Source: an uncultured virus (IMG/VR IMGVR_UViG_3300013121_000021) | Taxonomy: Duplodnaviria > Heunggongvirae > Uroviricota > Caudoviricetes | Reading direction: 5' to 3' (one strand) | Length of the DNA: 64,000 nt | IMG/VR virus record: IMGVR_UViG_3300013121_000021 | In this document: one piece after another, positions 4,241 to 64,000 of the stretch | How the letters are laid out: every line of letters starts with the position of its first letter | Position numbering within the stretch: the stretch's first letter is position 1 | Program-made: the position numbers and the translations under genes | The notes under the pieces: generated by a model | What the model saw: only the letters and a program-made list of their open reading frames with translations | Database searches by the model: none | Told to the model about the DNA's origin: nothing

Positions 4241-4258
4241 TTTTATTTACCTCTTGAA

Positions 4259-5521: not shown

Positions 5522-5525
5522 ATAT

Positions 5526-6167
5526 TTATTCCCAAGTTGTGGAAATTAATTCTATATCATTTAATTCTGATAATAATGTTTTAGAATCTATTTCCGTCCC
5601 TTTTAAAGCTTCCCAATCAAAAACATTTTGAACATGAGTACTTACAGCTAAAACAATTTGTCCTAATTCAGTATTTGAAAGTGTTAGCCAAATTGGACCT
5701 TCAAATTTCCAATTAGCTCCATTACTTCCTAATTGATAAGCTTGAAGATATAATCCTCTATCTTCTCTACTCGTATATAATTTAACTTCTGTTTCTTGAA
5801 TTGTTGATTTTACTCCTTGAATTTCATATTTATACCTATTAGCGGCAACTATTTGTTTTAATTCCGCTTTAACTGTATCAATATTCTTATCTACTGGAAC
5901 ATAATACATTTCTGCATATGTTGAGAAGAAATTATAAAATGGTCCAGATAATTGTTGTATTTTTGGATTATATTCAGTATTAGGTCCTAAATCAGTAACT
6001 GGTAATATTCTAATTGTTTCATTAATTGTTATTGGTTCATTATTTGGATTACTTAACGGTAATGCGTAATTTATTTCAAATTCATCTGATAAACAATTAG
6101 AAAACATTACAGGTCGCCAATTCATAGGACCTAATACTACATTATTATTATCTACAATTATAAACAT
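5526..6167 (-). CDS. Tail-fibre assembly-like protein (DUF4376-like C-terminus)
   Basis: K..VAANRYKYEIQG...WKF...HVQNVFDWE pattern; lies among fibre genes. Confidence 0.55.
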   Translation of the reverse strand: MFIIVDNNNVVLGPMNWRPVMFSNCLSDEFEINYALPLSNPNNEPITINETIRILPVTDLGPNTEYNPKIQQLSGPFYNFFSTYAEMYYVPVDKNIDTVKAELKQIVAANRYKYEIQGVKSTIQETEVKLYTSREDRGLYLQAYQLGSNGANWKFEGPIWLTLSNTELGQIVLAVSTHVQNVFDWEALKGTEIDSKTLLSELNDIELISTTWE

Positions 6168-6173
6168 AATTTA

Positions 6174-8432
6174 TTATTCTGTCATATATTGAATTGCCAA
6201 TGAACTATGATGTCCTGCATTTATTTGTTTCCAATTAGCAAGTGTTCCAATTTGGATTGGTGAAGAACTAGAAGTTGTAGTACTATCCCCTAATTGTCCA
6301 AAAGAATTATCTCCCCAAGCCCAAAGTGTACCATCTGTCTTAATAGCAACTATATGATTATCTCCACCATTAACATGTTTCCAATTTGTATTTGTACCTA
6401 TTTGTATTGGTGAAGATCTATGGGTTCTCGTACCATCTCCTAATTGACCATAAGAATTAGAACCCCAGGACCAAAGTGTACCATCAGTCTTAATAGCAGT
6501 TATAAATGAATCACCACATGTTAATTTTGTCCAATTAGATCCGCCAGCTAAAGTCTGTTTTGGAGACATATTAGAAGTTGTAGTACTATCCCCTAATTGA
6601 CCATCACCATTATAACCCCAAGCCCAAAGTGTACCATCCGTTTTAATAGCTGCTGCAAAATAATTACCAGCTGAAACCATTTTCCAATTAGATCCGCCAG
6701 CTAAAGTTTGAACAGGTGAATGTATTGCCCATATTATACTTGTTCCTAATTGATAAATAGCGTTTGAACCCCAAGTCCAAAGTGTGCCATCAGATTTAAT
6801 TCCAGTATGAAAATATACCCCAGAACTAATTTGAGACCAAGTGGGTGTATTATAATTGGTTTGAACTAAAACTGAAGTATTTGCATTAATATCTGATTGA
6901 ATTAATAATTCTGGGTCTGCAGTATAATTTCCCCAAGTATATAAATCTCCATTTGTTTTAATACCTACTGCAGAGGTATTTGCAAAATATATATGATACC
7001 AATCTGTACCTTGAAAACATATTTCATTAGGAATACTAAAATTTCCAGTTCCAGATCTGTCTGAAGATGCACATAAATAATTTCCTTTTTGTCCCCAAAT
7101 CCATAAAGTACCATCAGTTTTAATTGCTGCTGAATTATATTTTGTAGCTATTACTTTCGAATATGTAGTATCAGCACCGATGATTTGAATTGGATAAGAT
7201 TTATTTACAACAGTGCTATCACCTAATGCTGCTGTTATATTATTACCACAGGAAAAAAGTTGACCAGTTGTTTTAACTGCTGCAAAATGAGTACAACCAC
7301 AAGATACTTGAGACCAATCAGTACCACCTAATAATGTTTGAATTGGTGTACTTCTATGAACTCTATCACTTCTTCCTAATTGTCCATATGAATTAGCACC
7401 CCATAACCATAAAGTACCGTCGGTTTTTACAGCAGCCGTAAAATGTAAACCACATGAAACTTGATTCCAAGTTGTACCTGCGGTTATAGTTTGAACTGGT
7501 GATAATCTCCATGTAGAAATTAATGAATTACCTAAAACTCCTAATGTACCACCACCCCAAGTCCATAATGAACCACCTGTTTTTACAGCTGCTGTATGTA
7601 ATTCACCACATGATACCTGTTTCCAATCAGTACCTGTACCAACTTGAACAGGAGACGATCTAGCTGTTAAATTACTTTGACCTAATTGACCAAAAGAATT
7701 TGATCCCCATGTCCATAAAGTACCATCTGTTTTAATAGCAGCTGTATGATATCTTCCAAATGATATTTGTTTCCAAGTAGTATTAGCACCTATTTGGGAT
7801 GCAGAACTTCTAATTGTACGTGTCCCATCTCCTAATTGACCATAAGTATTTGAACCCCACATCCACAATTCATTTGAAGCATTAACTGCGCCTAGGTGTT
7901 CATTATTAGTTCCATCATTAAGATTATAACCATCTTCATACCAAACACCTTGAGTTAATTCTGTAGCTAAATATGGAACTTTTGTATCTACTTTTCGTCC
8001 TATCTGCTCATGTGTATTTAATCCACACGTCCATAAAGTACCATCATTTTTAAGAACAATACTGGAACCATAGGCAAGAGATACAAATTTCCAATCAGTA
8101 TCAGATACAATATTTTCAGTAGGGATTAATTTATCTATAGTAGTACTTAATCCTAATTGACCAAAATAATTATCTCCCCAAAACCATAAAGTTCCATCAT
8201 CTTTTATACCGGCAGCATGTAAAAATTTTATACTTGCAGATCTCCAAATACCAGTATTAGTAATTTGAACTGGTGATGATCTATGTGTAGTAGTACTTAA
8301 CCCTAATTGACTATAAGAATTACTTCCCCATAACCATAATGAATTAGGTCTAAGATAATCATCTATAAAACTTTGATCATTTATAAAATAATTATCAAAA
8401 TCGCCAGTTTCTTTTGAGCTAAATTTAGACAT
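6174..8432 (-). CDS. RCC1-repeat beta-propeller protein
   Basis: More than 10 RCC1 repeats (AIKTDGTLWAWGxNxxGQLGD...SP). Confidence 0.9.
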   Translation of the reverse strand: MSKFSSKETGDFDNYFINDQSFIDDYLRPNSLWLWGSNSYSQLGLSTTTHRSSPVQITNTGIWRSASIKFLHAAGIKDDGTLWFWGDNYFGQLGLSTTIDKLIPTENIVSDTDWKFVSLAYGSSIVLKNDGTLWTCGLNTHEQIGRKVDTKVPYLATELTQGVWYEDGYNLNDGTNNEHLGAVNASNELWMWGSNTYGQLGDGTRTIRSSASQIGANTTWKQISFGRYHTAAIKTDGTLWTWGSNSFGQLGQSNLTARSSPVQVGTGTDWKQVSCGELHTAAVKTGGSLWTWGGGTLGVLGNSLISTWRLSPVQTITAGTTWNQVSCGLHFTAAVKTDGTLWLWGANSYGQLGRSDRVHRSTPIQTLLGGTDWSQVSCGCTHFAAVKTTGQLFSCGNNITAALGDSTVVNKSYPIQIIGADTTYSKVIATKYNSAAIKTDGTLWIWGQKGNYLCASSDRSGTGNFSIPNEICFQGTDWYHIYFANTSAVGIKTNGDLYTWGNYTADPELLIQSDINANTSVLVQTNYNTPTWSQISSGVYFHTGIKSDGTLWTWGSNAIYQLGTSIIWAIHSPVQTLAGGSNWKMVSAGNYFAAAIKTDGTLWAWGYNGDGQLGDSTTTSNMSPKQTLAGGSNWTKLTCGDSFITAIKTDGTLWSWGSNSYGQLGDGTRTHRSSPIQIGTNTNWKHVNGGDNHIVAIKTDGTLWAWGDNSFGQLGDSTTTSSSSPIQIGTLANWKQINAGHHSSLAIQYMTE

Positions 8433-26065: not shown

Positions 26066-29000
26066 CTAATTCCAAACATCATTCATCTTATATTTTATAA
26101 TATAAGATGGTGCTGTCCTCCAAATACCATTTTGTTTTATTTTTACTGTATTTAGTGCCACCCATTGGTTATTAATATTAATCTTAGGTTTACTTGAATA
26201 TATTAATACTGGACTATTAAATTCAAGTGTTACATTACTATATAAACCAGATGATTCTATTGTTGCTTTTACTTTTGGAAATTCAAGATATTCATATTCA
26301 GGATAATAAGATTTATCCGTTATACCCCATTGATCATATGTTGAGAATGAATTTGGAGTTTCCCAAATATTATAAATACTAACATCCTTATTGTAGCTAT
26401 TTTCTATTTTTGCTTGCCACCATTGTAATTGTTGCTTATATAGATTATAAACTGTATCTAATCCATCTTCTCCAAATTTTAGTTGAGCAATAGCTTTAAA
26501 CATATATGGTGATGGGCCTGGACAACCAAATCCACCTTCATAAAAACAGAAAGTAGGTCTGACTGGATCTCCATTTAAATCATTTCCTAATTCACCATTA
26601 TTATTTAATAATGTATCAAAATGATAGCCTTCATTAGTTTTAAACTCTTCTAATCCTATCCAAGCATGTGGAATCACTTCTTCTAATGTCCACTGATAGG
26701 GTAAAGGAGCATGTATTTCTTCAATATGCTTTATTTCTGGACTCAACATATCTGCAAAATAAGCATTTGAACCAATTACATCATATGGAATACCATCAAT
26801 ATCTTTTGTATATTGAACGGCGTATTTCCAAACATCTATTGCTACCGAAGGGTTTGCACTAATTGTACTTAATACTCTTAAAAATCTTCTTTGTTGGGTT
26901 TTAGGATCATCCCATAATTTAACAGGATATAATCTAGCATGTTCGCCACTAAATACGGAGTCCCAAATAGCAAATACTCTTTGAGATAACATAGCGTATG
27001 CTTTTAAATGAGAATCCCAACTTAAATTTGCAGCATTAGGATCTGGTTCAATATTAAATTTATCAGCATATAAATTTAACCACCAACCAGTGCCTAAACC
27101 ACCATTCCATTGTTCATTTCCAAATTCAGCATATATTCGTAAATTAGGATTTAAATTATCTCTAAATATTTTAGCTATTTCTAATTGATAATCATCAGGT
27201 GCAGCAGGATGTAAATTTATCCAACAATCAGTATTTGTTTTATTACATTGTTCAATAATTATTTCCCATGGTATATTACTATCTGCGCCTGACCATGATA
27301 CATCATCAATATAACCTCGTTCAGATATATCTCTCGAAATAGCCTGAAATGTATTTCCTTTACACCAATCTAAATATCTAATACATTTAAAATATTTTAA
27401 TCTATCTAACCATTCTGGATAAAATACTTCACCAGAATCTAATAGACTCTCATATTTTTCTTCTACTAACCTAATATTTCTAATATGATTATCTGGATTA
27501 GTAGATGATATTACAATTAAAAAACCAGATTGTGCTTGGGTCCAATTCGGTGTTGGTATATCTGATCCTAAAGCATATTTAATATGAACAGGATCTCCAT
27601 TTGATGTATTACCAGAACAATCTATATCATAAACTATTCTATTAGAAGAACTAGATATTTCTGTAACTGGATATGGGCCTGCTGAAAGTCCTACAGTATT
27701 ATTCATATGAATAGTACCTTCACCATCCCATTTTAATACATATCTACCACTTGGCATTACAGGATGATTCATTTGACCAGCGACATAATTCCAAGGTGCT
27801 GATAAACGATAACTAATACATGATAATTGATAACCTGTTGGAATATATCTTGGATACCCATTTTCATCCATATTTAAATCTGAATGAGTATCAATAACTT
27901 CTTTTTTAATATAATAAAAATCATTGATATCTGAACTTCCAATAGTAGGCGTATCTATTTCAATATATACTTTATTATTGATATCATCTACGGTTGCGGA
28001 TACAAATTTTGTATTATTTGCTATATTTGTACCCAAAACAGTTTTATCAAATAAGTCTGCTCCAAATAAAGAAGGCCACCCACTACTTGATTTAGAAACT
28101 GTTAATATAGTATCACCAGATTCAAATTCGACATTAGATAATACTATTCTAGTATCAAAACAATCCCATCTACTATCTATTCCATTTCCATTAACAGATG
28201 CATCTCGATATAACCACCAACCTTGAACTGGAGTTTTTGGCCAAACCCCATAATAATCTACAGAACTTCTATATCTTCCAGCATTAGATACTTTTAATAA
28301 ATTTAAAAATATTCTAGCTGTACTAAAAAAATGATTACCAGTTACATTTATACCTACATTGTGTTGTGGAGTTTCAGATATTGATTTTATTGGGAACGGC
28401 TGAATTTCTATATCGCCGCTTATATATTCTAATGTAGGATAAAAAACTTGACTTCTATTTTCAATAGGAATTATTGGATAATTTGGAACATATAAAAAAT
28501 CAGCATAATAAACATCAGGGGTTGTTCCTTCATTAATCATTAAACCATATAATAAAGAAGATGTCCAAATTGGCGCCCATGGTTCATAAGCAGGATCTGG
28601 ATTACCATTTAATTGTGGTTGATATGGTTGATTAATAGATATTTTTAATCCAATTGAACCATATGAAAATGTTAATGGATTAGATGTTCCTGGTCTTGCC
28701 GTTTCTGTTAAGGTATATTGCATACCTTTAGTAGCTTTAAACGAATAACTTAATCTGGTCCAAGTATTTGGATATATTGGCATACTTTGAGATAATCTAA
28801 AAGTATTATCAAATATTCTTGGACCGCCATAAATAGCAAGATCACCAGAAAATACAAATCCTACACCTACTGGTTTAGTTATATCTTGTGTTATAGTAGT
28901 ATTAGGATAATCAGGATCAATAAAACTACTCGCCATATTAATTGAAAAGTAATATTGATTAGATCTCCAATCTGTTGTTAGCGTATTATAATTTTTATGT

Positions 29001-32000
29001 ACTCTAGTTATTTTTCTTCCAGTAGTATCAGTTATTACTACAGCTAATCCTACTAAATCACCAACAACATTATTATCTAATGCATAAACTAATTGATTTT
29101 CAGCATTAATAAAAGAATATTCGGAAGCTAATCTTAACCAAAATTGAGCACCATAACTTGTAAATTCACTATTATATGGAATTTCTTGATATACAACTAC
29201 AGAATTTTTTGTTCTAGTTAATATATCAGATAGATTAGTTGCAACATTAAGATCATATATTTGATAATCTTCCGTTACCCAAAATGATGAAGAAGAATTA
29301 TCACTTATTGCTTTAATTTTATCAGCTCTTCTATCTACTAATATTTTATCAGCTGGAATTACATCTGGTATTCCTAAATCACCAATCGTAGGGTAAGTTC
29401 CAGTTATTTCACTTACTGGTATTTGTATAGAACCGTTTAAAAATTTCCAACTTGAATGACTAAAATTACCTTGTGAATTAGCTACTTCTATACCATTAAA
29501 CCAAGTACCACTTGGTATAATATTAAAAAAAGCAGTTGTTTCTAAATATTTAGCTTTAATCCATATAGATACAGTATAATCCACACCTTCAACTAATGTT
29601 GTAGGCATTGGCCAAAGTATAGAAACCCCAGAATATCCATTTAATTTATTAGGATCAGATGATCCTTGTAATAAATCAGAATGATACCCATCTGGATTTG
29701 GATTATATATTGGATCATTAGGTGTTAAATCTTGATTGGCTATTATAGTTGATCCACTATTTTCAACTAAATAATATCCTAATTCATCATTTATTAAAAC
29801 ATCAAAAGTATTTCCATATGGAATAGCATGTTTACCTAATCTTGTAAATGTTGCTAATCTAAATGGATCAAATGGTGAATAAATCAAATCTCCATTTGAA
29901 TTCAATTCATTAATATCTGGATAAAAAAATTCAAGATTGGAATCAATATAATTACCAGTTGGAATACTTAATGAATCATAAATAAATAAATATGGTTCTA
30001 CAAAATCATATAAAGATGTTCCTACTACTAAAGAAGCTCCATATAAATATAGATTAGCATTAGCAGCAATATAAATACTTAATTCACCATTAGAACCTAA
30101 AACAGGATCTGGAATATTTCCAGGAATAGTAAAAGTCCAATTATATCTTTCATACCCATCAGTAGATGGATAAACATAAATTGCATAATTTATAAACCCA
30201 ATTATATTATTTGGATCCCACCAAACAACACCAGTAGGTTCTGTCCATAATCTTAATGCGAAACCATCTGAACCTGAATTTCTTTTTGAATAAACAGAAA
30301 ATGTATAAGTATAATTTGGTTGTAAATAAACATCTAATTTTAATCCACCATATGATAAATCATCAGATACTATTCTATCTGCTAAATTAGATGTTCCAAA
30401 TGGATTTATATCATTATCTCTATAAACTGTATATCCAGGAGTTGCTGGTAGATTAGATGGTGTATATCTCCATCCTTGAAAATTTAAACCTAAATTATTT
30501 TTTATTAAATTATAATCAACAAATCCATATCTTGTTGGGTCGAACGGCAGAGTTAAAGGATTACCATTAATATCTAATTCATCAATAGAACAATCAAAAA
30601 ATTCTAATGAAGAATCTATTGTATCTACATCATAAGTATATAATATTCGATCTTTAAATATAGTATCTGTTGTATCTAACCATGCTCCAAATAGAACTAA
30701 TTGGCTTAAAGTTGGATTATTATCTGGTGAACCAGTTATTCTTATTGCAATTTTAGTTGGCGTATTAGCATCTAAATTTACTGGAGTTGTAAATTGCCAT
30801 GTATATAATGTCCAATCACCAGGTATAGGACTTGTATATACTTCTGTAGGATTAGTTCCAGTATTTCCTACTCCTGGCCAATAAACACTACCAAAAGTAC
30901 TATCTTGATTTAATCTAAAAGAAAATTCACAAAATTTACCAACTGGAATAAGAGTCCATATCTTAAAATAATATTCAGTATTAGGTTGTATTGTAACTTC
31001 GGTTTCTAATCCACCATAAGCATTTGCATCTGCTTTAACTAAATCTGCTAAATTTGAATTACTTAAAGGATCCAGATAAACATCTTTTTCAATAATATAC
31101 CCTTGATTTGGCGAAATCCTATGATTCCATTTATCAAAAGATGTTCCAAATTGTAATAAAGGAATAAAATCTGTATCTAATATCCAACTCTGTTCAATAT
31201 TAAGATCACCTAATTGATCTCCAACTACATTTATTTTATATGTTTGTTCGAATAATAGATCACTCATATTACTTATAATTTGTCTAAAAAATGCACATGT
31301 TGGTATTTGAAAACTCGAATTATATCTGCTTATTCCTTTTGTAATTCTAATACTATCAATATATCCATACCAATTAGTATTACTGATTTTTAATGTTCCA
31401 GGACAAGTTATAGCAGACGCATATGAAACAAAACTATATCCAACACCATCTATATACAATCTTAAATTCCCAGCAACTCTAGTTAAAGCTAAATGATGCC
31501 ATTCTAATGCTCTTATTGTTACAGATGTTGTTGCTCTAATAGAATTAGATGTAAATGTTGTTATTGTTCCTTGTTGAAAAATTTGTAGTCCAGTATCAGT
31601 TGATATAGATCTAGTATCAAATATAGTTCTTAATGTAGCTCCAGTTTCTAATGATTTATACCAAAATTCAATAGTAAAATCATTAGTTCCAAAATCAAAA
31701 TCAATACTTGAAGGGCTATATATTTGATCTCCAGATCCATCAAAATATAATGAAGTATTTCCAAATTTCTTATCTGTAGATACTAATGAAGATTGTCCTA
31801 CTACAGTAAATTCATGATTTTTTTCATCAATTATATCACCTTCCATTGGCATAAATAAAACTACATTATTCCAATAGGGATCATATGGAGTTTCAGAATA
31901 ACTAGGATTATCAAAAGTAATTAAATTTGGATCAAAATTTGAAGTATAATTAGCTTGACCTATTAATACTCTAATACTATCTAAATACCAATCTGGATAT

Positions 32001-33931
32001 GATGTTACACCACCACCTAGACTCCATGAAGAAATAGATGTGGTTGGTGGTCTAGGATCATAAACCCAAGTACTATCTAATCCATTTTGTGTTCCATTAA
32101 TAAAAATTCTAACTATATTATTTGAACGGCAAACTGCAACATGGCACCACTCATTCGTAGCTATAGATAATGCAGAGGTTTCAAAATATGCTACACTTGT
32201 AACATTATATGAATATGAAAACCTTAATTTTGGTGTTGTTGCCGTTCCAATAAAATGTAAACGCCAATCTGGAGATGTATAACTATTATTTATAACAAAC
32301 CATTCATTTGCTGATGTTGGAAATGAATTAAAATAAACATATGCTTCAATTGTAAAATCAGAATTCCCATCCGCATTAACTAATGCTAATTCGTTATTAT
32401 TTGTTAATAATTTAATTGTATTATTTGTACCAGGAAAATATGTAGAAGCAGTTCCAGTTTTATAAATAGAAGTTGATGCAGTAATAGCAGAAGATCCAGT
32501 AACACCATAATTAGCTTCATTTTTAAATTCTGTACTTCCTTCTGCACTATCCATATGCATTAATAATTTTAAATTTTTACTATATGAATTAGAATAAATT
32601 AATTTACTAGTTGGAGAGGCTTCTATTGGGACTGTAAAAATTTGTTTTCCAACATTACCTCTAGCTATCCCTTTAGTTATTCTAACTTCATCAATATATC
32701 CTAAATACTGACTACCAAAATATATTGTTTCTAATGTTGCAGAATCTATTGTAAAACTTGAAAAATTCCAAGATTCACATATTCCATTTAAATATAAAAA
32801 CCAAAAAGATCCTTTTCTAATAAATGTTATTTGATGCCAAGTATCATAAACAATTGACGAAGCTGAAATTAATAAAGCCGCAGATGAATTATAATTTCTT
32901 GAAAATACAGCATATTTATTAGGATATGAAGCATGATCGATAGCAATTGACCAAGCATTAGTAACCCATGAATTACTATTAGCAATTAAAGCAGGATATT
33001 GGTTTCCTGTAATCTGTGGATAAAACCAAAACTCAATAGTAAAATCTTGAGATCCAAAAGCAAAATCAATTGATGAATTAGTTTGAAGAATACTTGATCC
33101 ATTTAAATACAAAGATGAATTATTAAATTTATATAAATCAGTTTTAGTAATCGGAGATCCACTATATGTACTTAATATATGATTTTTTTCATCTGTAAAT
33201 ATAGTTCCATTATTTTCGCCATCCATATGACATAATAAAACTACATTATCCCAATAATCATCTGTTGAACTAAAAGGAATAGTATTATCAGCTACTGGAA
33301 TACTATATCTATTTACACCTTTAGTAATTCTAAAATCATCAACCCAACCTTTTAGAGAATCATTAGCACCACCAGACCAACCTTGCCATCCTATATGAAT
33401 ATAGTTTGATGAATTTGGCAATAAAGTATTATTATATTTATATTGGGCTTGTAAAATACCATCGATAAATAAATTCAGATGTAATAGATCAGAAGTTACT
33501 GCAATATGATACCATTGGTTAATATTTAATATGCCAAGACTTCTTGCAATAGTAAAAGATACAGAAGAGGTATTTTTATATAAATATAAATAACCATCTG
33601 ACCATCTAAAAATAGCAAATCTATTAGTACCAGAAGTTCCTATTTGTAGTATATGAGGGGTAGTAGTGTTAAATGATTCAAAATTAATAAAAAAATCTAT
33701 TGTAAATATACAATTATTAAGATTAAATTCAGAAGTTGGGCCAATCATCAATAAATCAGTATTACCATCAAAATATATTGATGTTGGTCCAAATTTCTTA
33801 TTATTTGATTTTAAAGTTGGAGTACCAGTTTTAGATATATTATGATTTTTTATATCATATATGTAGCCTGAGTTATCTATACCGTTTCCTGGTAAATGTA
33901 AGACTACTTGATCATAATAAACATCAGCCAT
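26066..33931 (-). CDS. Giant virion protein: about four LamG-like domains, carbohydrate-binding-like modules and a C-terminal glycoside-hydrolase-like (clan GH-A-type) domain
   Basis: Repeated FTIEFW...WHH...GYIDEVRITKG LamG units; C-terminal IRNIRLV..FYPEWL..IRYLDW...PWE......N....WIN...IYAEFGNEQWN with NE acid/base-like motif and later FYEGG. Confidence 0.75.
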   Translation of the reverse strand: MADVYYDQVVLHLPGNGIDNSGYIYDIKNHNISKTGTPTLKSNNKKFGPTSIYFDGNTDLLMIGPTSEFNLNNCIFTIDFFINFESFNTTTPHILQIGTSGTNRFAIFRWSDGYLYLYKNTSSVSFTIARSLGILNINQWYHIAVTSDLLHLNLFIDGILQAQYKYNNTLLPNSSNYIHIGWQGWSGGANDSLKGWVDDFRITKGVNRYSIPVADNTIPFSSTDDYWDNVVLLCHMDGENNGTIFTDEKNHILSTYSGSPITKTDLYKFNNSSLYLNGSSILQTNSSIDFAFGSQDFTIEFWFYPQITGNQYPALIANSNSWVTNAWSIAIDHASYPNKYAVFSRNYNSSAALLISASSIVYDTWHQITFIRKGSFWFLYLNGICESWNFSSFTIDSATLETIYFGSQYLGYIDEVRITKGIARGNVGKQIFTVPIEASPTSKLIYSNSYSKNLKLLMHMDSAEGSTEFKNEANYGVTGSSAITASTSIYKTGTASTYFPGTNNTIKLLTNNNELALVNADGNSDFTIEAYVYFNSFPTSANEWFVINNSYTSPDWRLHFIGTATTPKLRFSYSYNVTSVAYFETSALSIATNEWCHVAVCRSNNIVRIFINGTQNGLDSTWVYDPRPPTTSISSWSLGGGVTSYPDWYLDSIRVLIGQANYTSNFDPNLITFDNPSYSETPYDPYWNNVVLFMPMEGDIIDEKNHEFTVVGQSSLVSTDKKFGNTSLYFDGSGDQIYSPSSIDFDFGTNDFTIEFWYKSLETGATLRTIFDTRSISTDTGLQIFQQGTITTFTSNSIRATTSVTIRALEWHHLALTRVAGNLRLYIDGVGYSFVSYASAITCPGTLKISNTNWYGYIDSIRITKGISRYNSSFQIPTCAFFRQIISNMSDLLFEQTYKINVVGDQLGDLNIEQSWILDTDFIPLLQFGTSFDKWNHRISPNQGYIIEKDVYLDPLSNSNLADLVKADANAYGGLETEVTIQPNTEYYFKIWTLIPVGKFCEFSFRLNQDSTFGSVYWPGVGNTGTNPTEVYTSPIPGDWTLYTWQFTTPVNLDANTPTKIAIRITGSPDNNPTLSQLVLFGAWLDTTDTIFKDRILYTYDVDTIDSSLEFFDCSIDELDINGNPLTLPFDPTRYGFVDYNLIKNNLGLNFQGWRYTPSNLPATPGYTVYRDNDINPFGTSNLADRIVSDDLSYGGLKLDVYLQPNYTYTFSVYSKRNSGSDGFALRLWTEPTGVVWWDPNNIIGFINYAIYVYPSTDGYERYNWTFTIPGNIPDPVLGSNGELSIYIAANANLYLYGASLVVGTSLYDFVEPYLFIYDSLSIPTGNYIDSNLEFFYPDINELNSNGDLIYSPFDPFRLATFTRLGKHAIPYGNTFDVLINDELGYYLVENSGSTIIANQDLTPNDPIYNPNPDGYHSDLLQGSSDPNKLNGYSGVSILWPMPTTLVEGVDYTVSIWIKAKYLETTAFFNIIPSGTWFNGIEVANSQGNFSHSSWKFLNGSIQIPVSEITGTYPTIGDLGIPDVIPADKILVDRRADKIKAISDNSSSSFWVTEDYQIYDLNVATNLSDILTRTKNSVVVYQEIPYNSEFTSYGAQFWLRLASEYSFINAENQLVYALDNNVVGDLVGLAVVITDTTGRKITRVHKNYNTLTTDWRSNQYYFSINMASSFIDPDYPNTTITQDITKPVGVGFVFSGDLAIYGGPRIFDNTFRLSQSMPIYPNTWTRLSYSFKATKGMQYTLTETARPGTSNPLTFSYGSIGLKISINQPYQPQLNGNPDPAYEPWAPIWTSSLLYGLMINEGTTPDVYYADFLYVPNYPIIPIENRSQVFYPTLEYISGDIEIQPFPIKSISETPQHNVGINVTGNHFFSTARIFLNLLKVSNAGRYRSSVDYYGVWPKTPVQGWWLYRDASVNGNGIDSRWDCFDTRIVLSNVEFESGDTILTVSKSSSGWPSLFGADLFDKTVLGTNIANNTKFVSATVDDINNKVYIEIDTPTIGSSDINDFYYIKKEVIDTHSDLNMDENGYPRYIPTGYQLSCISYRLSAPWNYVAGQMNHPVMPSGRYVLKWDGEGTIHMNNTVGLSAGPYPVTEISSSSNRIVYDIDCSGNTSNGDPVHIKYALGSDIPTPNWTQAQSGFLIVISSTNPDNHIRNIRLVEEKYESLLDSGEVFYPEWLDRLKYFKCIRYLDWCKGNTFQAISRDISERGYIDDVSWSGADSNIPWEIIIEQCNKTNTDCWINLHPAAPDDYQLEIAKIFRDNLNPNLRIYAEFGNEQWNGGLGTGWWLNLYADKFNIEPDPNAANLSWDSHLKAYAMLSQRVFAIWDSVFSGEHARLYPVKLWDDPKTQQRRFLRVLSTISANPSVAIDVWKYAVQYTKDIDGIPYDVIGSNAYFADMLSPEIKHIEEIHAPLPYQWTLEEVIPHAWIGLEEFKTNEGYHFDTLLNNNGELGNDLNGDPVRPTFCFYEGGFGCPGPSPYMFKAIAQLKFGEDGLDTVYNLYKQQLQWWQAKIENSYNKDVSIYNIWETPNSFSTYDQWGITDKSYYPEYEYLEFPKVKATIESSGLYSNVTLEFNSPVLIYSSKPKININNQWVALNTVKIKQNGIWRTAPSYIIKYKMNDVWN

Positions 33932-48181: not shown

Positions 48182-48512
48182 CTACTATAAATATAAAATG
48201 AGTATATGAATTTGGGTTATCTTCATAAATAGATAAAACAGTTACTTTATTTGATTCAGATTTAGTTATTGTTTTATCTTTATTAAATTTTGTTGTTACT
48301 GTAACGGGAGGTATTTCGCCGTATTTATTTGTATCTATATTTACTAAAATTGTTCTATGAATCATTATTTGATGAGATGCAATTGATGATTCATAAGTAA
48401 CGCTGATTACATTGGATGAAAAATTGGATAATAATTTTGGATCTTCAATTTCTATTATTTTACCATCTTTTTCATCACAAAAATTTACCATTAACGATTC
48501 TAATATATTCAT
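48081..48512 (-). CDS. Hypothetical protein
   Basis: ATGA-coupled to the sspB-like gene. Confidence 0.55.
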   Translation of the reverse strand: MNILESLMVNFCDEKDGKIIEIEDPKLLSNFSSNVISVTYESSIASHQIMIHRTILVNIDTNKYGEIPPVTVTTKFNKDKTITKSESNKVTVLSIYEDNPNSYTHFIFIVDGFATIYKLPSINNEQPKPKQPRRNRRDNKVSS

Positions 48513-48964
48513 TTTTTATTTTTAAATAACGGCACAACTTTATTATCTTTTTCAGGTTCTATTTCGGATTCTAATTTAGATTCTAATTTAGATTCTATAA
48601 TAGAATTTTTTTTCATATCAAATTGTTTTATTTTCTCTATATCAAATCCTGTTACAAAACCCATATTATTTTCTTTTGAAAATAATGATAAAACATGATT
48701 TGTAGGGAATTCAACATATTGTTCTTTACCTGAAAATCGAGCTTTAAATGAAATTAAATCATCCGTTATTTGTAAATCTACGGCAGCAATAGGATTTATA
48801 TTTAAAATAATTATTCCTTCATTATTTAAATATTGCTGTGGAATATATTGTTGATCTTTACCATAGACAGCTATAAATGGTGTATGATCATTATCTAAAC
48901 ACCAATTTAAAGTTGCCATTAATTGATAAGTTAATAAATTTTTATTTTTACATCTAGGATTCAT
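48509..48964 (-). CDS. sspB: Stringent starvation protein B (ClpXP specificity-enhancing adaptor)
   Basis: W.LDND.TP.I.V...IP.QY...G.IILNI.P.A..DL......ISF.ARFSG...P...V..LF.KEN..G matches the SspB core; acidic tail ending VVPLFKNKK. Confidence 0.85.
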   Translation of the reverse strand: MNPRCKNKNLLTYQLMATLNWCLDNDHTPFIAVYGKDQQYIPQQYLNNEGIIILNINPIAAVDLQITDDLISFKARFSGKEQYVEFPTNHVLSLFSKENNMGFVTGFDIEKIKQFDMKKNSIIESKLESKLESEIEPEKDNKVVPLFKNKK

Positions 48965-49385: not shown

Positions 49386-49615
49386 ATCTCCTCCTTTATA
49401 AATTCTTCGATTATTTTTACTAACTGAGTATTAATATCTGGTTTTTGAAAATCTATATCTAATAATTTTTCTGTTAATGATGTTTTTGTTTCTTTAACGG
49501 CAGATTTCCAACAGTGATAAAATTGTTTTGTAAATTGATAAAAATAATTATTAGTATTTTCTATCTTATTTGTTGGGATACCATTTTGTTTTGCCCATAC
49601 TTCAAATTGATTCAT
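49382..49615 (-). CDS. Hypothetical protein
   Basis: 77 aa, ATGA-coupled. Confidence 0.55.
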   Translation of the reverse strand: MNQFEVWAKQNGIPTNKIENTNNYFYQFTKQFYHCWKSAVKETKTSLTEKLLDIDFQKPDINTQLVKIIEEFIKEEI

Positions 49616-50448
49616 AACCCTATTATTTTATGAGAAATATTATCTTTAGAACTATTTTTAATTTTATACATTTCGGCATCAGCTATATCAATTAAATCTT
49701 GTGATAAATAAATTTGATCTACTTTTTCACAATTAATTGATAAAATTCCATAACTACATGATATATTTAATTTTTTAAATTTTATCTTAATTTTATTTCT
49801 TATTCTAGATATTATTTCGCTTGCATTTGATGGAGAAGATTCTACTAATATTATTGCAAATTCATCTCCTCCCATTCTAGCTACAGAATCTATTTTTCTT
49901 ACAGAAGTTTTTAATATTGTTGCGAATTCTTGTAATACTTTATTAGCTTGTATATGTCCTAATTTATCATTAACGTATTTAAATCCATCTATATCTAAAA
50001 ATACAATGGTTAACCATTTTTTATATCTATAACATCTATTTACTTCATTATCTAATAAATAGTTAAAATGATCAATATCATATAATTTTGTTAATGGATC
50101 TTTAATACTTATTTCTTTTATTTTTTCAATTTGTTTAGATATAACTGATAAAATTAAAGGAAATACAATTAGTGAAAATATAATTTGTGAATTATACATT
50201 AATTTTAATTCTTCCATATCCTTTGGAATTATTGGAAAATATATATCATATAATTTTAAAGAAAAAGTTATAATTGAAAGTATTATTAATAATAATCTAT
50301 CTACTATCCAAACACATAATATAAATTCAATAATATAAACTGGACATGGTACTATATAATATGTAAATAAATCAATATATAACGTTAATGATAAAATTGA
50401 TGTTACTATAATTGATTTTATAAAAAAACTACAACAATTTTTAATCAT
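49612..50448 (-). CDS. Membrane-anchored GGDEF (diguanylate cyclase-family) protein
   Basis: Hydrophobic N-terminus; DPLT, DIDGFKYVND.LGH, RxxD I-site (RKID) and RMGGDEF. Confidence 0.9.
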   Translation of the reverse strand: MIKNCCSFFIKSIIVTSILSLTLYIDLFTYYIVPCPVYIIEFILCVWIVDRLLLIILSIITFSLKLYDIYFPIIPKDMEELKLMYNSQIIFSLIVFPLILSVISKQIEKIKEISIKDPLTKLYDIDHFNYLLDNEVNRCYRYKKWLTIVFLDIDGFKYVNDKLGHIQANKVLQEFATILKTSVRKIDSVARMGGDEFAIILVESSPSNASEIISRIRNKIKIKFKKLNISCSYGILSINCEKVDQIYLSQDLIDIADAEMYKIKNSSKDNISHKIIGL

Positions 50449-51008: not shown

Positions 51009-52016
51009 TTAGGCCGCCTTCTTTTCCCTCTTCGGAGGCTTCTCAAAGATCTCCCTCAAAGTCCTTTGAGGGTGAGTGTACCCCAATTTCACCTGTTCGT
51101 ATCTTCCCTTGAGTGGCAGATTTTCGAATTGTCGCCAATATGTCCACATATCAGCGAGAAATTCCTTGATCATATAACGCACTGCGGCGTTATGCTTATG
51201 ACCTTTGGATTTTCCTTCCCAATTGGGATGCATGTCAAGACGTTGCTTGTAATTATCGTAAACCGTACGATATGGTCCACCCATCTTAATGAAAGATGGA
51301 CCAAGAACTCCAAGCAGTTTGGTTTTAACAAAGGGATTAAACGTAATCCCTTTCGTCTTAACCAGTTCACCTTCCATGTCGATATATTCCTTATCGACCA
51401 AGTGTGCTTTTCGGCGCGAACGCCCTTCCGAGTGGATCACTCCATCATCATCTTCATAGACGACAACGTCCACCCCACAGTACTTGTGAAGCGCAGCGAT
51501 CGAATTACACTTAGTAATATCGATCTCCGACAAAATAACGCCTGCCATTCGCGGTCCAACTCCATGGACATTGACCAAGTAATAATTGTAGAACGGGTAA
51601 TTTACCAATTCTTTAGCTACCAATTCAGCATAGATGTCTTCGGAGGCTCGCATGTGATCAAAAGCTTCGAAGATGCGAATGTCATCTTGCGTTTTCAAAA
51701 GAGTGATTTCCTTATCTTCTTTGTAGTTTTTCGGCAGACGAACCCGACGCTTCGCCATGTCCAATACCTCGTCGGACATCAGGCGGTTTTCAATCTTGAC
51801 TTTCGTCTTGATGTGGTCATACTCTTCCTTGAGGATCTTGAGCAATTTCTTGCTCTTCTCTTCTTGCTCATCCTTGTTTAAGGCGGCATATTGCTCCTCG
51901 GTTAAACCGAGGGCGTTTCTGAAGATTTGTACCAGCCGATTGCCGATACTAATCCTCAATTTCTGTTGGTCGTACATCGTACGAACCAGCATCCCAAGAC
52001 GGGACTTCATACTCAT
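51009..52016 (-). CDS. Nop/IS110-like RNA-binding protein without a nuclease domain (TasA-like TIGR-associated protein)
   Basis: N-terminal helix LVRTMYDQQKLRISIGNRL; VHGVGPRMAGVILSEIDITKCNSIAALHKYCG aligns with the IS110/Nop helical motif (IPGIGP..A..LLAEI......L..YAG); FNPFVKTKL...YDNYKQRL...HKHNAAVRYMIKEFL. No RuvC DEDD or HNH motif. AGAGGA RBS. Confidence 0.8.
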   Translation of the reverse strand: MSMKSRLGMLVRTMYDQQKLRISIGNRLVQIFRNALGLTEEQYAALNKDEQEEKSKKLLKILKEEYDHIKTKVKIENRLMSDEVLDMAKRRVRLPKNYKEDKEITLLKTQDDIRIFEAFDHMRASEDIYAELVAKELVNYPFYNYYLVNVHGVGPRMAGVILSEIDITKCNSIAALHKYCGVDVVVYEDDDGVIHSEGRSRRKAHLVDKEYIDMEGELVKTKGITFNPFVKTKLLGVLGPSFIKMGGPYRTVYDNYKQRLDMHPNWEGKSKGHKHNAAVRYMIKEFLADMWTYWRQFENLPLKGRYEQVKLGYTHPQRTLREIFEKPPKREKKAA

Positions 52017-54458: not shown

Positions 54459-54821
54459 TTATACTTCGAATATTGGAGTTGGTTTTAATTTTTCAAAAAC
54501 GCTCTCAATATATGTTAATGGAGTATTGTTGTCAAATTTGGCAATAATTTGACCTAAATGTCCATCTTTTCGAAGAAACATTTTTTTCTCCGATTGATTA
54601 TAAGCGAACATATAAGTCTTTCCATTAATTGTCAACCAAACTCTCGATCGCGTCCGTCCACATTGTGATTGCCAAACTTCAAAAGGAACACCGCGATCTT
54701 GTTTCCATGTTGCATGTCCTAACAAAGTAGGAATAATATTTCTAATTGATGGGACATGATGATTTACTGCAGATTTTCCATAATCAAAAAAATCGCGGAG
54801 ATCAAAAGTTTTTACTTTCAT
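54459..54821 (-). CDS. Protein resembling the integron cassette family VCH_CASS14
   Basis: HH......I..L.G...WK.D...VW..INGK.Y.F.YN...FDN.TPL..I...F..L pattern, recognised from memory. Confidence 0.55.
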   Translation of the reverse strand: MKVKTFDLRDFFDYGKSAVNHHVPSIRNIIPTLLGHATWKQDRGVPFEVWQSQCGRTRSRVWLTINGKTYMFAYNQSEKKMFLRKDGHLGQIIAKFDNNTPLTYIESVFEKLKPTPIFEV

Positions 54822-59654: not shown

Positions 59655-59995
59655 TATATATACTTTAACTTTAAATATTCTTTAAAAAAAGGATCTAATG
59701 AATATTGGATTACTTGTTCTATTGCTGGATTACATAAATGAGAACTTCTAATGTATAATTTTAAAGATTGAATTGTTTTTTCTATTACTTCATTTGAAGT
59801 ACTTTTTTCTACTTCATTTGAACCAAATTTAAATAAATATTGAAAATTATGAGAAATTGGAGTATGTGTTTTTTCAAATTCATCTTCAACATCATGAAAA
59901 AACATTCTCATTGTTAAATTTACTTTAATAAATTTATTACTATCGAACGGCGAATATATTGAAACTTCTAAACTAAATGGATGTTTTGCTATCAT
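59654..59995 (-). CDS. Tandem paralogue family member 2
   Basis: Ends DPFFKEYLKLKYI. Confidence 0.6.
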   Translation of the reverse strand: MIAKHPFSLEVSIYSPFDSNKFIKVNLTMRMFFHDVEDEFEKTHTPISHNFQYLFKFGSNEVEKSTSNEVIEKTIQSLKLYIRSSHLCNPAIEQVIQYSLDPFFKEYLKLKYI

Positions 59996-60348
59996 ATATA
60001 TTTTAATTTATAAAATTCTTTAATATCTTGATTATAAATTAATTCAATTAAAAATTTTATAACATAATCATGATGAACACTTCTTGAAAATATAAATGAA
60101 AAGAATAAATTATTATCTTTAGGATCAATTTCTTCTACTATATCTATCATATTTATAGTATCTATTAATAATTTATCCATATTATTATATTCTAATATAG
60201 TTTTAGTATTATAACTTAGAATATGTAAAGTTCTTTCAAAAGAAAACATTAAATAAATTATTGTAGCTCCTCTTTTTATTTCATTTTCTTTTACATTAAA
60301 TCCCACCATAGAATAAAATTCTATTCTAGGAAAATTATTATCTATCAT
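59992..60348 (-). CDS. Tandem paralogue family member 1
   Basis: Ends NQDIKEFYKLKYI. Confidence 0.6.
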   Translation of the reverse strand: MIDNNFPRIEFYSMVGFNVKENEIKRGATIIYLMFSFERTLHILSYNTKTILEYNNMDKLLIDTINMIDIVEEIDPKDNNLFFSFIFSRSVHHDYVIKFLIELIYNQDIKEFYKLKYI

Positions 60349-60353
60349 AAAGT

Positions 60354-60384
60354 AAAAAAGCTACTGAAGCTAAATTCAGTAGCT
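60354..60384 (-). terminator. Intrinsic terminator closing the array transcript
   Basis: AGCTACTGAA/TTCAGTAGCT 10-bp stem followed by a U-tract on the minus strand. Confidence 0.7.
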
Positions 60385-60392
60385 GTATTTAA

Positions 60393-60503
60393 TTATTTTT
60401 TAATAAAGAGTGCTTCCAATATTTTATATACTGAAAGTAATCCTATACCAACTAAAACTAATCCAGAAACTTCTTTTACTGTTTTGTACTTATCTTCTTT
60501 CAT
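60393..60503 (-). CDS. 36-aa single-transmembrane peptide (not in ORF track)
   Basis: MKEDKYKTVKEVSGLVLVGIGLLSVYKILEALFIKK; lies between the array and the terminator. Confidence 0.5.
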   Translation of the reverse strand: MKEDKYKTVKEVSGLVLVGIGLLSVYKILEALFIKK

Positions 60504-60541: not shown

Positions 60542-62736
60542 TGATAAAATTAAGGGTTTAGTATCTATTCAATCACTTTGTTAAAATTCGTGTCCATATT
60601 TCTATTCGAGCAGTATGTTAAAATCGTCCACCATGTAACTATTTTAAGAAGAGTGTTAAAATTTAACTCTTTGTATCTATTTGACAACCGTGTTAAAATC
60701 AGTCTTAATATAACTGATTAACAGTTCTGTTAAAATTTCATTTTCAGTTTTTGATACTGCTTGTTGTTAAAATACGCTCTTCTATTTCTGATATACGGTC
60801 TTGTTAAAATTCCCGCCGGTATTTCTGATAGACTGTCTTGTTAAAATCGTACTCAATGAGTCTTTTTTCATCTCGTGTTAAAATAGAATTGTGTAAGTCT
60901 ATTTACATTTATTGTTAAAATTCGTATATCTAAATCTGATCATACGAAGTGTTAAACTTGTTTCTGATGTATCTATTAATCTTAGATGTTAAAATCAATA
61001 TCGATGATTCTAATTGCCGTAGGTGTTAAAATAAATTCGCTTATTTCTACTTTTGGCAATTGTTAAAATTCATCGGTCTGTTTCTGTTTGGCCTAATTGT
61101 TAAAATCGGGTCCTTTGTTTCTAATTCGAATCCCTGTTAAAATAGAACAGTATGTTTCTGATTTTGATCAATGTTAAAATACACACCACTATTTCTATTT
61201 TGACGTAGTGTTAAAATTACAACTTCTGTTTCTAATAGTAATTCTTGTTAAAATACTTTGTAATGTATTTGTTTGGTTTCGATGTTAAAATTGGCACACT
61301 TGTATTCTAATCAAAATCCCTGTTAAAATTTGCCTTATTGTTTCTAATACCACATAGCGTTAAAATTTACACCTTTGTTTCTGATTCGGGTCAGTGTTAA
61401 AATTTCTCCTTTTATTCCTGATCAAGATGTTTGTTAAAATTCGTATCTTTGTTTCTGATAAGAGGACGTGTTAAAATAAGCGCCTTTATTTCTGATTTAA
61501 AATTATGTTAAAATTTTACTTCATGTTTCTATTAAATAATATTGTTTAAATAAATTCAAGAATTTCTGATTCGCGATAATGTTAAAATCACTTTTCGTAT
61601 TTCTGATGGAGTCTCATGTTAAAATTGTGTGCCATATTTCTGATCTGCGCGCTTGTTAAAATCCAACCCTTTACTTCTGGTTATGGGCGTTGTTAAAATT
61701 GGCTTTTTTATTTCTATTCATGGGAGGTGTTAAAATGCGCCTCATTATTTCTGATCCACATGCTTGTTAAAATTCGTCAGAATATTTCTGATCTGGTTCA
61801 GTGTTAAAATCATCACCTATATTTTTGATCCGGCCGAATGTTAAAATCAGGCCCTTTATTTCTGATCAATATTAATGTTAAAATGGAAGCTCGTGTTTCT
61901 ATTCGTCATCATTGTTAAAATTCTCCTCATTATTTCTGATCAATTTTAATGTTAAAATCCGCCAACCTTATTTCTGATTGTTCATGCTGTTAAAATAAGT
62001 TCATCTATTTCTAATCTACGCCAGTGTTAAAATTCTCAGCATTATTTCTGATCACCTCTGCCGTTAAAATACCGATTGTTATTTCTGATTCGATTTTTTG
62101 TTAAAATGACTGGCCCTATTTCTGATCGGGCCGAATGTTAAAATAACCTGCTTTATTTCTATTTGGGGGAGGTGTTAAAATACGGAACGTTATTTCCGAT
62201 CCAACATCATGTTAAAATAACTGACCTTATTTCTAATCATTCATCCTGTTAAAATAACCAAATTTATTTCTGATTGCTAATTGTGTTAAAATAGAGATTT
62301 ATATTTCTGATTATTTATATTGTTAAAATATTCCACACTATTTCTGATTGAGCCCGATGTTAAAATTAGCACCTTTATTTCTGATCAATATCAATGTTAA
62401 AATAATGAGCTCTATTTCTGATCGGGCCGAATGTTAAAATCGGCTTTTTTATTTCTATTTGCGGCAGTTGTTAAAATTTATCCTCGTATTTCTGATCAAT
62501 ATGTTCGTTAAAATACCGATTGTTATTTCTGATTCGATTTTTTGTTAAAATATTTCCGCATATTTCTGATTAATACTTCTGTTAAAATTAGCGACACTAT
62601 TTCTGATCGAATCAAATGTTAAAATCCACCGCACTATTTCTGATCTAAGAACTTGTTAAAATCGGCTTCGATATTTCTGATTATTCATCTTGTTAAAATA
62701 CCTGTTGCTATTTCTGATTTGAGTTCGTGTTAAATT
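60542..62736 (-). ncRNA. TIGR-like dual-repeat guide-RNA array: 59 units of 37 nt (edge repeat, 9-nt spacer, loop repeat, 9-nt spacer)
   Basis: Plus-strand consensus TGTTAAAAT-N9-T(A/G)TTTCT(GA/AA/AT)T-N9. 60 edge repeats from 60542 to 62728; period 37 except three 38-nt units (starting 60616, 61283, 61950). Strand inferred from the promoter motif at 62768 and the degeneration gradient. Confidence 0.85.
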
Positions 62737-62767
62737 AGAAAAAAATTTAAAAAATCTTTTCTATAAA

Positions 62768-62782
62768 ATATTATATCTATAT
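62768..62782 (-). promoter_or_regulatory. Promoter-like motif ATATAGATATAATAT in the array leader
   Basis: About 31 nt from the best-conserved end of the array, pointing into it. Confidence 0.6.
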
Positions 62783-62879
62783 CAAATAGTATAAAAATTA
62801 ATCGGTAAAAACCCACCCAAATAATCAATACTTAATATTAATTATTTGGGTAAGTATAAAAATAGGTCGGTAAAAAAAC

Positions 62880-63460
62880 CAATCCTATACTTCAATATTT
62901 AATAGATTTTTTATGCTTCCGCGTCTATTAAATATAAATTTTTCGCTTTAATTATCGGCACTTTCCTTTTATTTTTGTATTTAAACCGATACAAATTCGG
63001 GTTTCAACGGATTATCATAGAGTTTTATATAAAAACTATTATACTTATCCTTGCTGTGGTACTCTCGTCTTCAACCGATACCCCACTATCCACAACTCTT
63101 TCATATCTCATACATTCCTATGTACTTCATATAACTAGTGTCATTTTTCAACGCACAACTTTGACGTGCTAGCCTCTACTCAGTAACTTTCCCGGATATT
63201 TTCTTCTCTAGGTAGACGAATCCCCTAGTTAAGTACTTTTAGCTGCTATTTAAGACTTCCGCGCCATAGAATACTTCTATCCGTCCTACTTATTACCTTT
63301 CCGCGCTCTCTCATGTAGCTACGTAGACCCTTCCCCTATATTTTAGTCCTTGCTTTGCGTTACAGTTTATCTTTGCACATCCTCAATGGCTGTGGGATAT
63401 AAACTTTCGCCCAGTTTTAATTCCGCGCGCTACGCTGGAACAACCGTTGAACGGTCACCT
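62880..63460 (-). ncRNA. Candidate large structured non-coding RNA
   Basis: GC-elevated with no convincing ORF; promoter-motif variant at 63461-63475; 8-bp long-range complementarity 63003-63010/63444-63451; repeated GCGCGGAA and TAGGGGA-N3-GTCTAC motifs. Confidence 0.45.
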
Positions 63461-63605
63461 CAATAATTTCTATATATAATGTGACCAAACCCAAAAATTA
63501 TACTTAAGTAACCTAAATGCTATTTTTTATACTAATACTAAAAATGTATAAATGATATATTGTACTTTCTGTTACTAACATATTTTTTTAAAACACTAGT
63601 ATAAT

Positions 63606-63688
63606 TTTTGAAAACACGGAAAATAGTAAAAAAATATTAGTAGAAAAATTTAAGTTACTAATTTTGAAAACACGGAAAATAGTAAAAA
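63606..63688. repeat. 27-bp direct repeat in an AT-rich non-coding region
   Basis: TTTTGAAAACACGGAAAATAGTAAAAA at 63606-63632 and 63662-63688. Confidence 0.8.
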
Positions 63689-64000
63689 CTATATCAAACT
63701 ATTAAAAAATAGTAATATAGTTTATAATTTTTTCCTAATAGGCTTTAAGTTAAAAGCTAGCTCTCTTGGATAAAAAAGTACTAGTATAAAAAAAATTCGG
63801 AAAAAATGCGTCCTATGACCACATAGGAACTCACTCATAAGTAGCATCTTTATCTCTTAAATACATTCCCAAAAATCCCAAAAACAAAAATTTGTTAATG
63901 TAAATTTAAGGTACTAATTCCTTCAAAAGATAAGTTTTTTATGCACCCGACGTATAAACCATCTTTTAGTCTATGTTTTTTCAGTCAAGGTTTTTTCATT

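Follow-up and report, generated by a model that had tools for sequence, protein, structure and literature searches.

TIGR (tandem interspaced guide RNA) arrays of the dual-repeat type are built from two alternating repeats of 8-12 nucleotides (nt), an edge and a loop, each followed by a 9-nt spacer (A after the edge, B after the loop; Faure et al. 2025, PMC12045711). According to the available portion of that paper, they usually hold 5-15 units, carry truncated edge repeats at both ends with a terminator last, and allow other spacer sizes (PMC12045711). In a half-unit model taken from the available portion of a later preprint, a 3-nt box C, a 9-nt spacer and a 2-nt box D are combined, with 4-nt gaps between half-units, and 65,635 guide RNAs (tigRNAs) are counted in 4,126 arrays, approximately 16 per array (Xu et al. 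2026, 10.64898/2026.09.09.750476). Here we analyze positions 60542-62736 of a 64,000-nt window (the whole stretch of DNA under analysis) of a large, uncultured tailed phage from sludge. Because its layout fits the published definition and a Tas protein encoded in the window matches as well, this stretch, judged from its sequence, is a dual-repeat TIGR array with a TasA-type Tas. Its part at 60542-61360 had been singled out in an earlier, sequence-only reading as the worn end of an array that grows from a leader in the manner of CRISPR arrays. The reading that we favor, with a probability of approximately 55%, is that 60542-61360 would be the older 3′ part of a 59-unit array that lengthened mainly in its 5′ part through the copying of units.

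The mechanism of growth, which the sequence-only reading left unexplained, is described as unsolved for TIGR arrays in general and is not peculiar to this locus. In the available portions of the two papers, the origin, expansion and spacer gain of TIGR arrays are called an ‘enigma’ (PMC12045711) and ‘unknown’ (10.64898/2026.09.09.750476), and the phrase ‘degenerate repeats at array boundaries’ is the sole mention in that portion of Xu et al. (10.64898/2026.09.09.750476). The word ‘acquisition’ does not occur in the available portion of PMC12045711, nor do ‘acquisition’, ‘array expansion’ or ‘degenerate’ in 10.64898/2026.08.11.744272. Our literature search found nothing on how TIGR arrays grow or on their polarity; TIGRSafari and the supplements to the TIGR papers, which lay outside that search, may list the locus or address the polarity of arrays.

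On the minus strand, each unit runs from the edge repeat ATTTTAACA through a 9-nt spacer A and the loop repeat ATCAGAAATA to a 9-nt spacer B; on the plus strand, the same strict tandem array reads GTTAAAAT, 9 variable nt, TATTTCTGAT and 10 variable nt. Of the 59 full units, 56 measure 37 nt and three 38 nt, and each end of the array bears a truncated edge, AATTTAACA at 62736-62728 (5′) and ATTTTATCA at 60550-60542 (3′), as read on the minus strand. We number units from the 62736 end (unit 1) toward the 60542 end (unit 59), and the three 38-nt units were put in register before the statistics of the loop gradient were computed, by which the loop of unit 21 becomes exact.

The tas gene (P0001; 51009-52016, minus strand) lies 8.5 kb downstream of the array, with approximately 25 small open reading frames (ORFs) between them, and encodes a protein of 335 amino acids (aa) with a Nop-type RNA-binding fold and a helical N-terminal part. 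The product scores 116.5 bits against NCBIfam NF052498 (‘TIGR-Tas system RNA-guided endonuclease’; cut-off 100), and phmmer against the PDB returns TasR (9mty, E = 1.2e-11) and TasH (E = 1.8e-9). In an AlphaFold model computed from 30 homologues (predicted local distance difference test score 86.9), residues 1-180 are purely helical, and a Foldseek search with this model places TasH and TasR complexes at ranks 1-10 (E = 5e-8 to 4.5e-6), with IS621 next. Because the modeled residues 1-180 contain helices only and the product matches no Pfam nuclease family at E 0.01, we class it as a TasA-type protein, with no RuvC or HNH before the coiled coil. Members of this Tas family are approximately 295 aa long with a short and conserved N-terminal helix; Y306 is invariant in 30/30 family sequences, and K310-L311-G312 is kept in at least 90% of them. 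The catalytic H296 of SpTasH aligns with Y313; the His of the family comes two positions further on, at H315, and its conservation is below 90%.

Taken together, the loop type of related arrays, the pairing of the edge repeat, the strand of the neighboring genes and the flanking minus-strand terminators indicate that the tigRNA strand is the minus strand, with the 62736 end as the 5′ end and 60542-61360 as the 3′ end. The closest relatives with DNA, L016 and L017, share 44% protein identity with the window’s Tas and both have an array period of 37 nt. Read on the tas-sense strand, L016 has the edge AGCGAGCCA and the loop AACAGAAACA, which is the loop type of the window’s minus strand and matches the loop of unit 45 exactly. 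In 7/8 consensus edge types among the related arrays, positions 2:7 and 3:6 of the edge are pairable, as G:C, A:T, G:T or T:A (T:A in the window array) and as C:G or T:A, and the G:T pair fits the tas-sense/minus strand only. In the window edge, AU-UUUA-ACA, both pairs are kept through double changes relative to AG-CGAG-CCA, and the box letters of the array repeats differ from the published UG and CCA. U2:A8 is pairable in the main loop, AU-CAGAA-AUA; loop variants with A at position 2 are unpairable unless the register shifts. The window ORFs that adjoin the array are all on the minus strand, as are most window genes, and minus-strand terminators flank the array. Purines also stand immediately before the loop in 50/59 units and at the third base of spacer B in 49/59; in effect, spacer A may measure 8 nt and the loop 11 nt.

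Along the array, loop mismatches to ATCAGAAATA climb with unit index (Spearman ρ = 0.677, p = 3.8e-9), a trend that 0/20000 permutations reach. Counted by thirds from the 62736 end and before the register of unit 21 was fixed, 15/20, 7/20 and 2/19 loops are exact. The promoter-proximal 20 units (61997-62736, minus strand), which include the duplicate units 6 and 18, are thus nearly uniform in ATCAGAAATA, and the promoter-distal 22 units (38-59; 60542-61360, minus strand) have worn loops and intact edges, with a mean of 2.73 loop mismatches in units 38-59 vs 0.59 in units 1-37. A gradual rise fits best, with an Akaike information criterion (AIC) of 159.2 for a log-linear Poisson model, 165.3 for one step and 204.9 for a constant. 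The edge repeat has no such gradient (ρ = -0.11, p = 0.41; exact edges by thirds 17/20, 18/20 and 18/19), and the 37-nt length is kept in 18/19 units of the distal third. Variation in the loop is concentrated at positions 2, 3, 7 and 9, and the loop skeleton A--AGA-A-A is intact in 19/20, 14/20 and 11/19 units by thirds. These counts confirm what the sequence-only reading had described, namely mostly uniform loops near 62000-62736 and a worn zone in which edge repeats and spacing are kept; the degenerate loops that it named, AGTATCTATT, TGTAACTATT, TGAGTCTTTT and TGTATTTGTT, are all present, at 60560, 60634, 60857 and 61264. Spacer G+C, taken as a second clock, shows no gradient along the array (ρ = -0.14, p = 0.28); it is approximately 44% overall, and the distal spacers, at 0.417, stand well above the phage background.

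It is plausible that this loop gradient is an age gradient, in which the 5′ units share a younger, derived loop. With the closest related array as outgroup, the outgroup state C at loop position 9 is found in 1/30 proximal vs 16/29 distal units (Fisher p = 8e-6), and the outgroup state A at position 2 in 4/30 vs 11/29 (p = 0.04). The distal enrichment of both states suggests that the proximal loop is the derived one. The loop also appears to be the looser of the two repeats, as it is more variable than the edge in 31/44 non-redundant related arrays and the TasR structure, in the available portion of its description, has no base-specific contacts to the loop middle (PMC12045711). Given that edges, unit length and spacer G+C are kept in the distal units, these are probably still under selection and not abandoned.

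Traces of unit copying are present among the spacers. Units 6 and 18 form one exact duplicate pair, and seven unit pairs have at most 6/18 spacer mismatches vs 0.58 expected. Spacer-A pairs that share at least 7/9 bases number 12 vs 3.0 expected (maximum 9 in 500 shuffles), and the excess of close spacer-B pairs is borderline (8 vs 3.2 expected). Paralogous pairs involve 26 units, 17 of them within units 1-30, and single half-units are shared too, with spacer A of unit 9 equal to that of unit 17 and spacer B of unit 8 close to that of unit 28. Among the related 36-nt arrays, L025 (10860-11940) and others contain exact duplicate units approximately 11 units apart, and spacer B of L025 is a family of look-alikes (A-A-C-T-N-A-C-C type). 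Within-array spacer relatedness is therefore not peculiar to the window, as it is seen in L025 and in other IMG/VR loci.

A sequence of events that would produce this pattern can be proposed. As in the published family, the minus strand would be transcribed, beginning on the 62737-62811 side, and cleavage inside the edge repeats would release tigRNAs of 37 nt with two 9-nt spacers each. With each tigRNA as its guide, the nuclease-free TasA (51009-52016) would then reach DNA as a dimer, most likely for binding or repression and not for cutting. The edge repeat would be needed for processing and box C/D contact, and selection would keep it in every unit, while loop positions 2, 3, 7 and 9, if only weakly constrained and close to neutral, would drift and serve as a rough clock. 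The 5′ units that share the derived loop ATCAGAAATA would be recent copies of one another, and the 3′ units would be older, having kept ancestral states and gathered private changes. Growth would have occurred mainly in the 5′ part, where slippage at the repeats, or unequal recombination there, would copy whole units, and spacers, from a presumed source of new sequence, would then turn over by replacement or reshuffling at a much higher rate than the loops.

Several findings weigh against this account. The outgroup is distant, and total loop distance to its consensus is not smaller distally (2.47 vs 2.15). Units 52-53, deep in the worn zone, carry perfect young-type loops, which argues that growth or conversion is not strictly terminal. 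Most spacers of the young part are mutually unrelated, with a modal distance of 13/18 as in shuffles, and duplication alone thus leaves the source of the spacers unexplained. The 5′ bias rests on one sequence, strains that differ at the 5′ end were not found in the public sequencing runs, and polarity is not general, with ρ positive in 22 and negative in 21 of 43 related arrays. Finally, the loop skeleton is intact in only 11/19 distal vs 19/20 proximal units, and part of the gradient could therefore reflect a true loss of function under relaxed selection.

Extended to the whole gradient, that last point becomes an explanation of its own, in which the units are similar in age and the distal guides, scarcer or less important down the transcript, have loops that decay. 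The skeleton damage (8/19 distal vs 1/20 proximal units) is what it would lead one to expect, as are an array of 2.2 kb with one presumed promoter and, as read from the sequence, a U run in every edge that could favor early termination. It accords poorly, however, with distal edges that are exact in 18/19 units and with the retained unit length, which are unexpected for unused units, or with distal spacer G+C (0.417) far above the phage background; nor does decay from a uniform ATCAGAAATA predict the distal outgroup states at positions 9 and 2. We consider relaxed selection as the full explanation unlikely.

The related arrays bear on whether growth from the leader is a general property of such loci. 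An alignment-based IMG/VR scan with Tas gave 80 loci, with tas oriented as plus, most of which have 36-nt arrays adjoining tas; a nearer Tas relative, P0003, is 59% identical. Neither a single-protein IMG/VR scan nor a protein-guided metagenome scan found a relative, a search of the phage collection for close array copies gave no match, a 27-nt pattern gave 15 single matches in IMG/VR, none an array, and a 45-nt pattern gave 0 matches in metagenome and genome collections. Polarity was computed for arrays of at least 10 units with end units trimmed, near-duplicates and the protein-coding repeat locus L046 having been dropped, along with one further array for which ρ was not computable. In the resulting 43 arrays, the median ρ is 0.02 (Wilcoxon p = 0.59), and two positive values and one negative value are nominally significant. 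Across 12 pairwise comparisons of related arrays, from which two near-identical array pairs were left out, 57/149 units are shared, and they are spread evenly over the thirds of the arrays (19/50, 17/49 and 21/50; chi-square p = 0.76). In each of the two omitted pairs, L079 with L080 and L037 with L039, the only difference in units is a single internal one of exactly 36 nt, and the junction falls inside the repeats.

Parts of the stretch were also found in 10 public runs, all DNA, from six studies of sludge or digesters. Contig pieces of four of these (X1-X4) show 0 differences on the array, except for one letter in a short variant contig of X1. The pieces without differences cover 60714-60938, 61090-61322, 61609-61928 and 62193-62414 in X2, 60957-61411 in X3, and 61351-61712 and 62518-62773 in X4, the second X4 piece comprising units 1-6 and 37 nt of leader. 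The sole array variant is the X1 contig, 61 nt long at depth 2, which joins 61283 to 61359 and so skips 75 nt, corresponding to units 38-39. The comparison is limited in that contigs hide rare variants, X1 may be the source sample, and the uncovered parts of X2-X4 are uninformative.

These data count against CRISPR-like polarised adaptation, in which machinery would insert units at the leader and copy the first unit’s edge and loop with a fresh 9-nt spacer pair, perhaps from higher-G+C DNA, so that age rises strictly along the array. Such a process would explain why the gradient starts at the 5′ end and why proximal loops are near-identical while their spacers differ as random ones do, as expected if a repeat is copied with new inserts, and a spacer G+C of approximately 44%, against 19-38% in 2-kb bins of the window, fits a foreign source. 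As the sequence-only reading had noted, however, no Cas1, Cas2 or integrase is found in the window, nor is a reverse transcriptase, by PHROGs on 79 ORFs or by Pfam on 80 (two extra plus-strand frames added, the 2621-aa ORF left out), and the sole ‘transposase’ match in these scans is the Tas protein itself; the contig that carries this Tas protein measures 159,064 bp, and approximately 95 kb of the phage lies outside the window. In addition, strict order is broken by units 52-53, paralogous units lie 8-29 units apart and not at the end, related arrays lack polarity and turn over evenly, close strains change at internal units, and units 1-6 beside the leader are unchanged in X4, a run that belongs to a different study.

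The leader-end addition proposed in the sequence-only reading is thus not borne out by the 43 relatives, which lack a common polarity, share units evenly and gain and lose them internally, or by X4. Even variation, which that reading had named as the pattern that would speak against it, is what the relatives display; it is not what the window array displays. Its suggestion that metagenomic reads be compared for changes at the leader end led to unchanged units 1-6 and a single internal variant. We regard polarised 5′ growth of this kind as quite improbable; if it did take place, it would amount to an adaptation pathway without Cas1 or Cas2, and the loop gradient would be the first natural record of the direction of TIGR guide acquisition. 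Very improbable is a junction of two arrays, an old one with A[AT][CT]AGA[AT]ACA loops fused to another phage’s ATCAGAAATA array, for although the best single break falls after unit 37 (means of 0.59 vs 2.73 mismatches) and position 9 turns from T to mostly C around units 33-38, the gradual model beats one step (AIC 159.2 vs 165.3), the edge repeat is identical in both parts, and position 7 changes from unit 40 and position 9 from unit 23, a nested arrangement and not one boundary.

TasA of the published family represses transcription according to the available portion of a preprint (10.64898/2026.09.09.750476), and by analogy the 59 guides most likely direct DNA binding. Searched for tandem-spacer matches in four geometries that allowed gaps of 0-2, the remaining 62 kb of the window yielded no self-target at 0-1 mismatch; at 2-3 mismatches, match counts were the same as in a control whose spacer partners had been shuffled. 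The spacer G+C of approximately 44% suggests that the targets lie outside this phage.

Upstream of unit 1, an AT-rich leader (62737-62811, minus strand), in which a promoter is presumed, is separated from the preceding non-coding unit by a strong terminator-like hairpin (62812-62854, minus strand; 20 pairs and then a T run) that closes that unit. The sequence-only reading had placed the conserved end of the array against a promoter motif; the conserved end is indeed the 5′ end on the tigRNA strand, and the motif itself is unconfirmed, as scans stay at chance level. A sigma-70 scan gave 20 sites vs 24.9 expected, with no promoter signal above chance for the leader, and an 11-mer derived from the leader occurs in the window about as often as chance would give (14 matches vs 13.6 expected). 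With one mismatch allowed, TTTTTATACTA has 14 matches in the window, six of which fall within 62787-63792.

Farther upstream, 62855-63475 (minus strand) comprises approximately 600 nt with no ORF, is purine-rich on the minus strand, ends at the terminator 62854-62812 and contains the motif GCGCGGAA four times. Its fold z-score is -4.15 against 20 shuffles, in part due to the terminator, and Rfam gives no match for it even at E 1. This segment may represent a sizeable non-coding RNA that sits immediately upstream of the TIGR leader. As a direct repeat of 25 nt, TTGAAAACACGGAAAATAGTAAAAA occurs twice, at approximately 63607-63632 and 63662-63688, in the long non-coding region beyond the array. 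Downstream of the array, a 36-aa open frame with a hydrophobic core (60393-60503, minus strand), a putative gene, lies between the array and a two-way terminator-like hairpin (60359-60384), which stands approximately 160 nt past the last unit. One X4 contig swaps 59939-60384, which holds a 118-aa ORF (59992-60348) and a terminator, for 23 other letters, and other X4 contigs keep the stretch, pointing to a strain difference just downstream of the array.

Other interpretations of the repeats were considered and rejected. A coding repeat is ruled out by stops in six frames, with no ORF of at least 50 aa inside the array; as read from the sequence, the TAA within the edge repeat places stops in all frames of both strands. 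A hairpin array is ruled out as the two 9-nt variable parts are complementary in few units only, and an array of extended -10 promoters (TGTTAAAAT) on the plus strand was dropped since the tigRNA strand is minus. Periods of 74 and 111 nt reported by Tandem Repeats Finder do not reflect a superstructure, with spacer periodicity at z ≤ 1.6 at every lag. No tRNAs or Rfam families were found in the window.

The window is a piece of an AT-rich tailed-phage genome, with 19-38% G+C in 2-kb bins. Between tas and the structural genes lie a GGDEF diguanylate cyclase domain protein (49612-50448, E = 2.8e-33) and an SspB-like adaptor (48509-48964, E = 2.4e-15), and a small protein of the integron-cassette type VCH_CASS14 (54459-54821, E = 2e-9) was found in the same region. 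Three large RCC1-repeat (beta-propeller) proteins (762, 420 and 752 aa) are encoded among the tail-fibre genes at 1952-8432, and a virion protein of 2621 aa at 26066-33931.

This array is long enough, and its loop loose enough, for a history to be readable, with a 5′-young, 3′-old order, duplicated units and half-unit mosaics, and its gradient is a clue to the open question of how TIGR arrays grow. The 44 related arrays constrain any model of that growth to internal gain and loss of whole units via repeats, even turnover and no general polarity; because of these constraints, growth looks closer to tandem-repeat dynamics, with spacers replaced rapidly, than to CRISPR adaptation. The locus is also an example of a TIGR array located 8.5 kb from tas, and searches restricted to 5-kb flanks would miss such arrays.

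Compared with the dual-repeat TIGR-TasA systems, the locus shares two alternating repeats, 9-nt spacers, truncated edges at the ends, a 3′ terminator, a phage carrier, and a Tas with a Nop-type fold and no nuclease domain. It differs from the 36-nt TIGR unit in its period of 37 nt, owing to one additional base in the 10-nt loop, as in L016 and L017, which we read as a variant length of the dual-repeat type. In contrast to the published edges AG or UG..CCA, the window edge is AU..ACA, in which U:A takes the place of G:C as the box pair; in contrast to typical arrays of 5-15 units (approximately 16 on average), it has 59 units; and unlike arrays beside tas, it lies 8.5 kb from the gene, beyond the 5-kb flanks given in the available portion of the first paper (PMC12045711). 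Its strong one-way loop gradient also sets it apart from the 43 related arrays.

CRISPR arrays with worn trailer ends resemble the locus in that promoter-side repeats are conserved, the far end is worn and the spacers differ. Unlike CRISPR, however, it has two repeats of 9-10 nt and 9-nt spacers instead of one repeat of approximately 23-50 nt with similar-sized spacers, only one of its two repeats wears, and no cas genes were found by PHROGs or Pfam among the scanned window ORFs; turnover in its relatives is even and internal, unlike leader-end addition. Concerted evolution of tandem repeats proceeds through unequal exchange and slippage, and unequal exchange usually leaves both ends of an array divergent. 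The locus and its relatives resemble such evolution in their unit-sized gains and losses joined inside repeats, their duplicates and mosaics, and copies that are more uniform where turnover is recent. They depart from unequal exchange in that only the 3′ end is divergent in the window array and that spacers turn over far faster than repeats.

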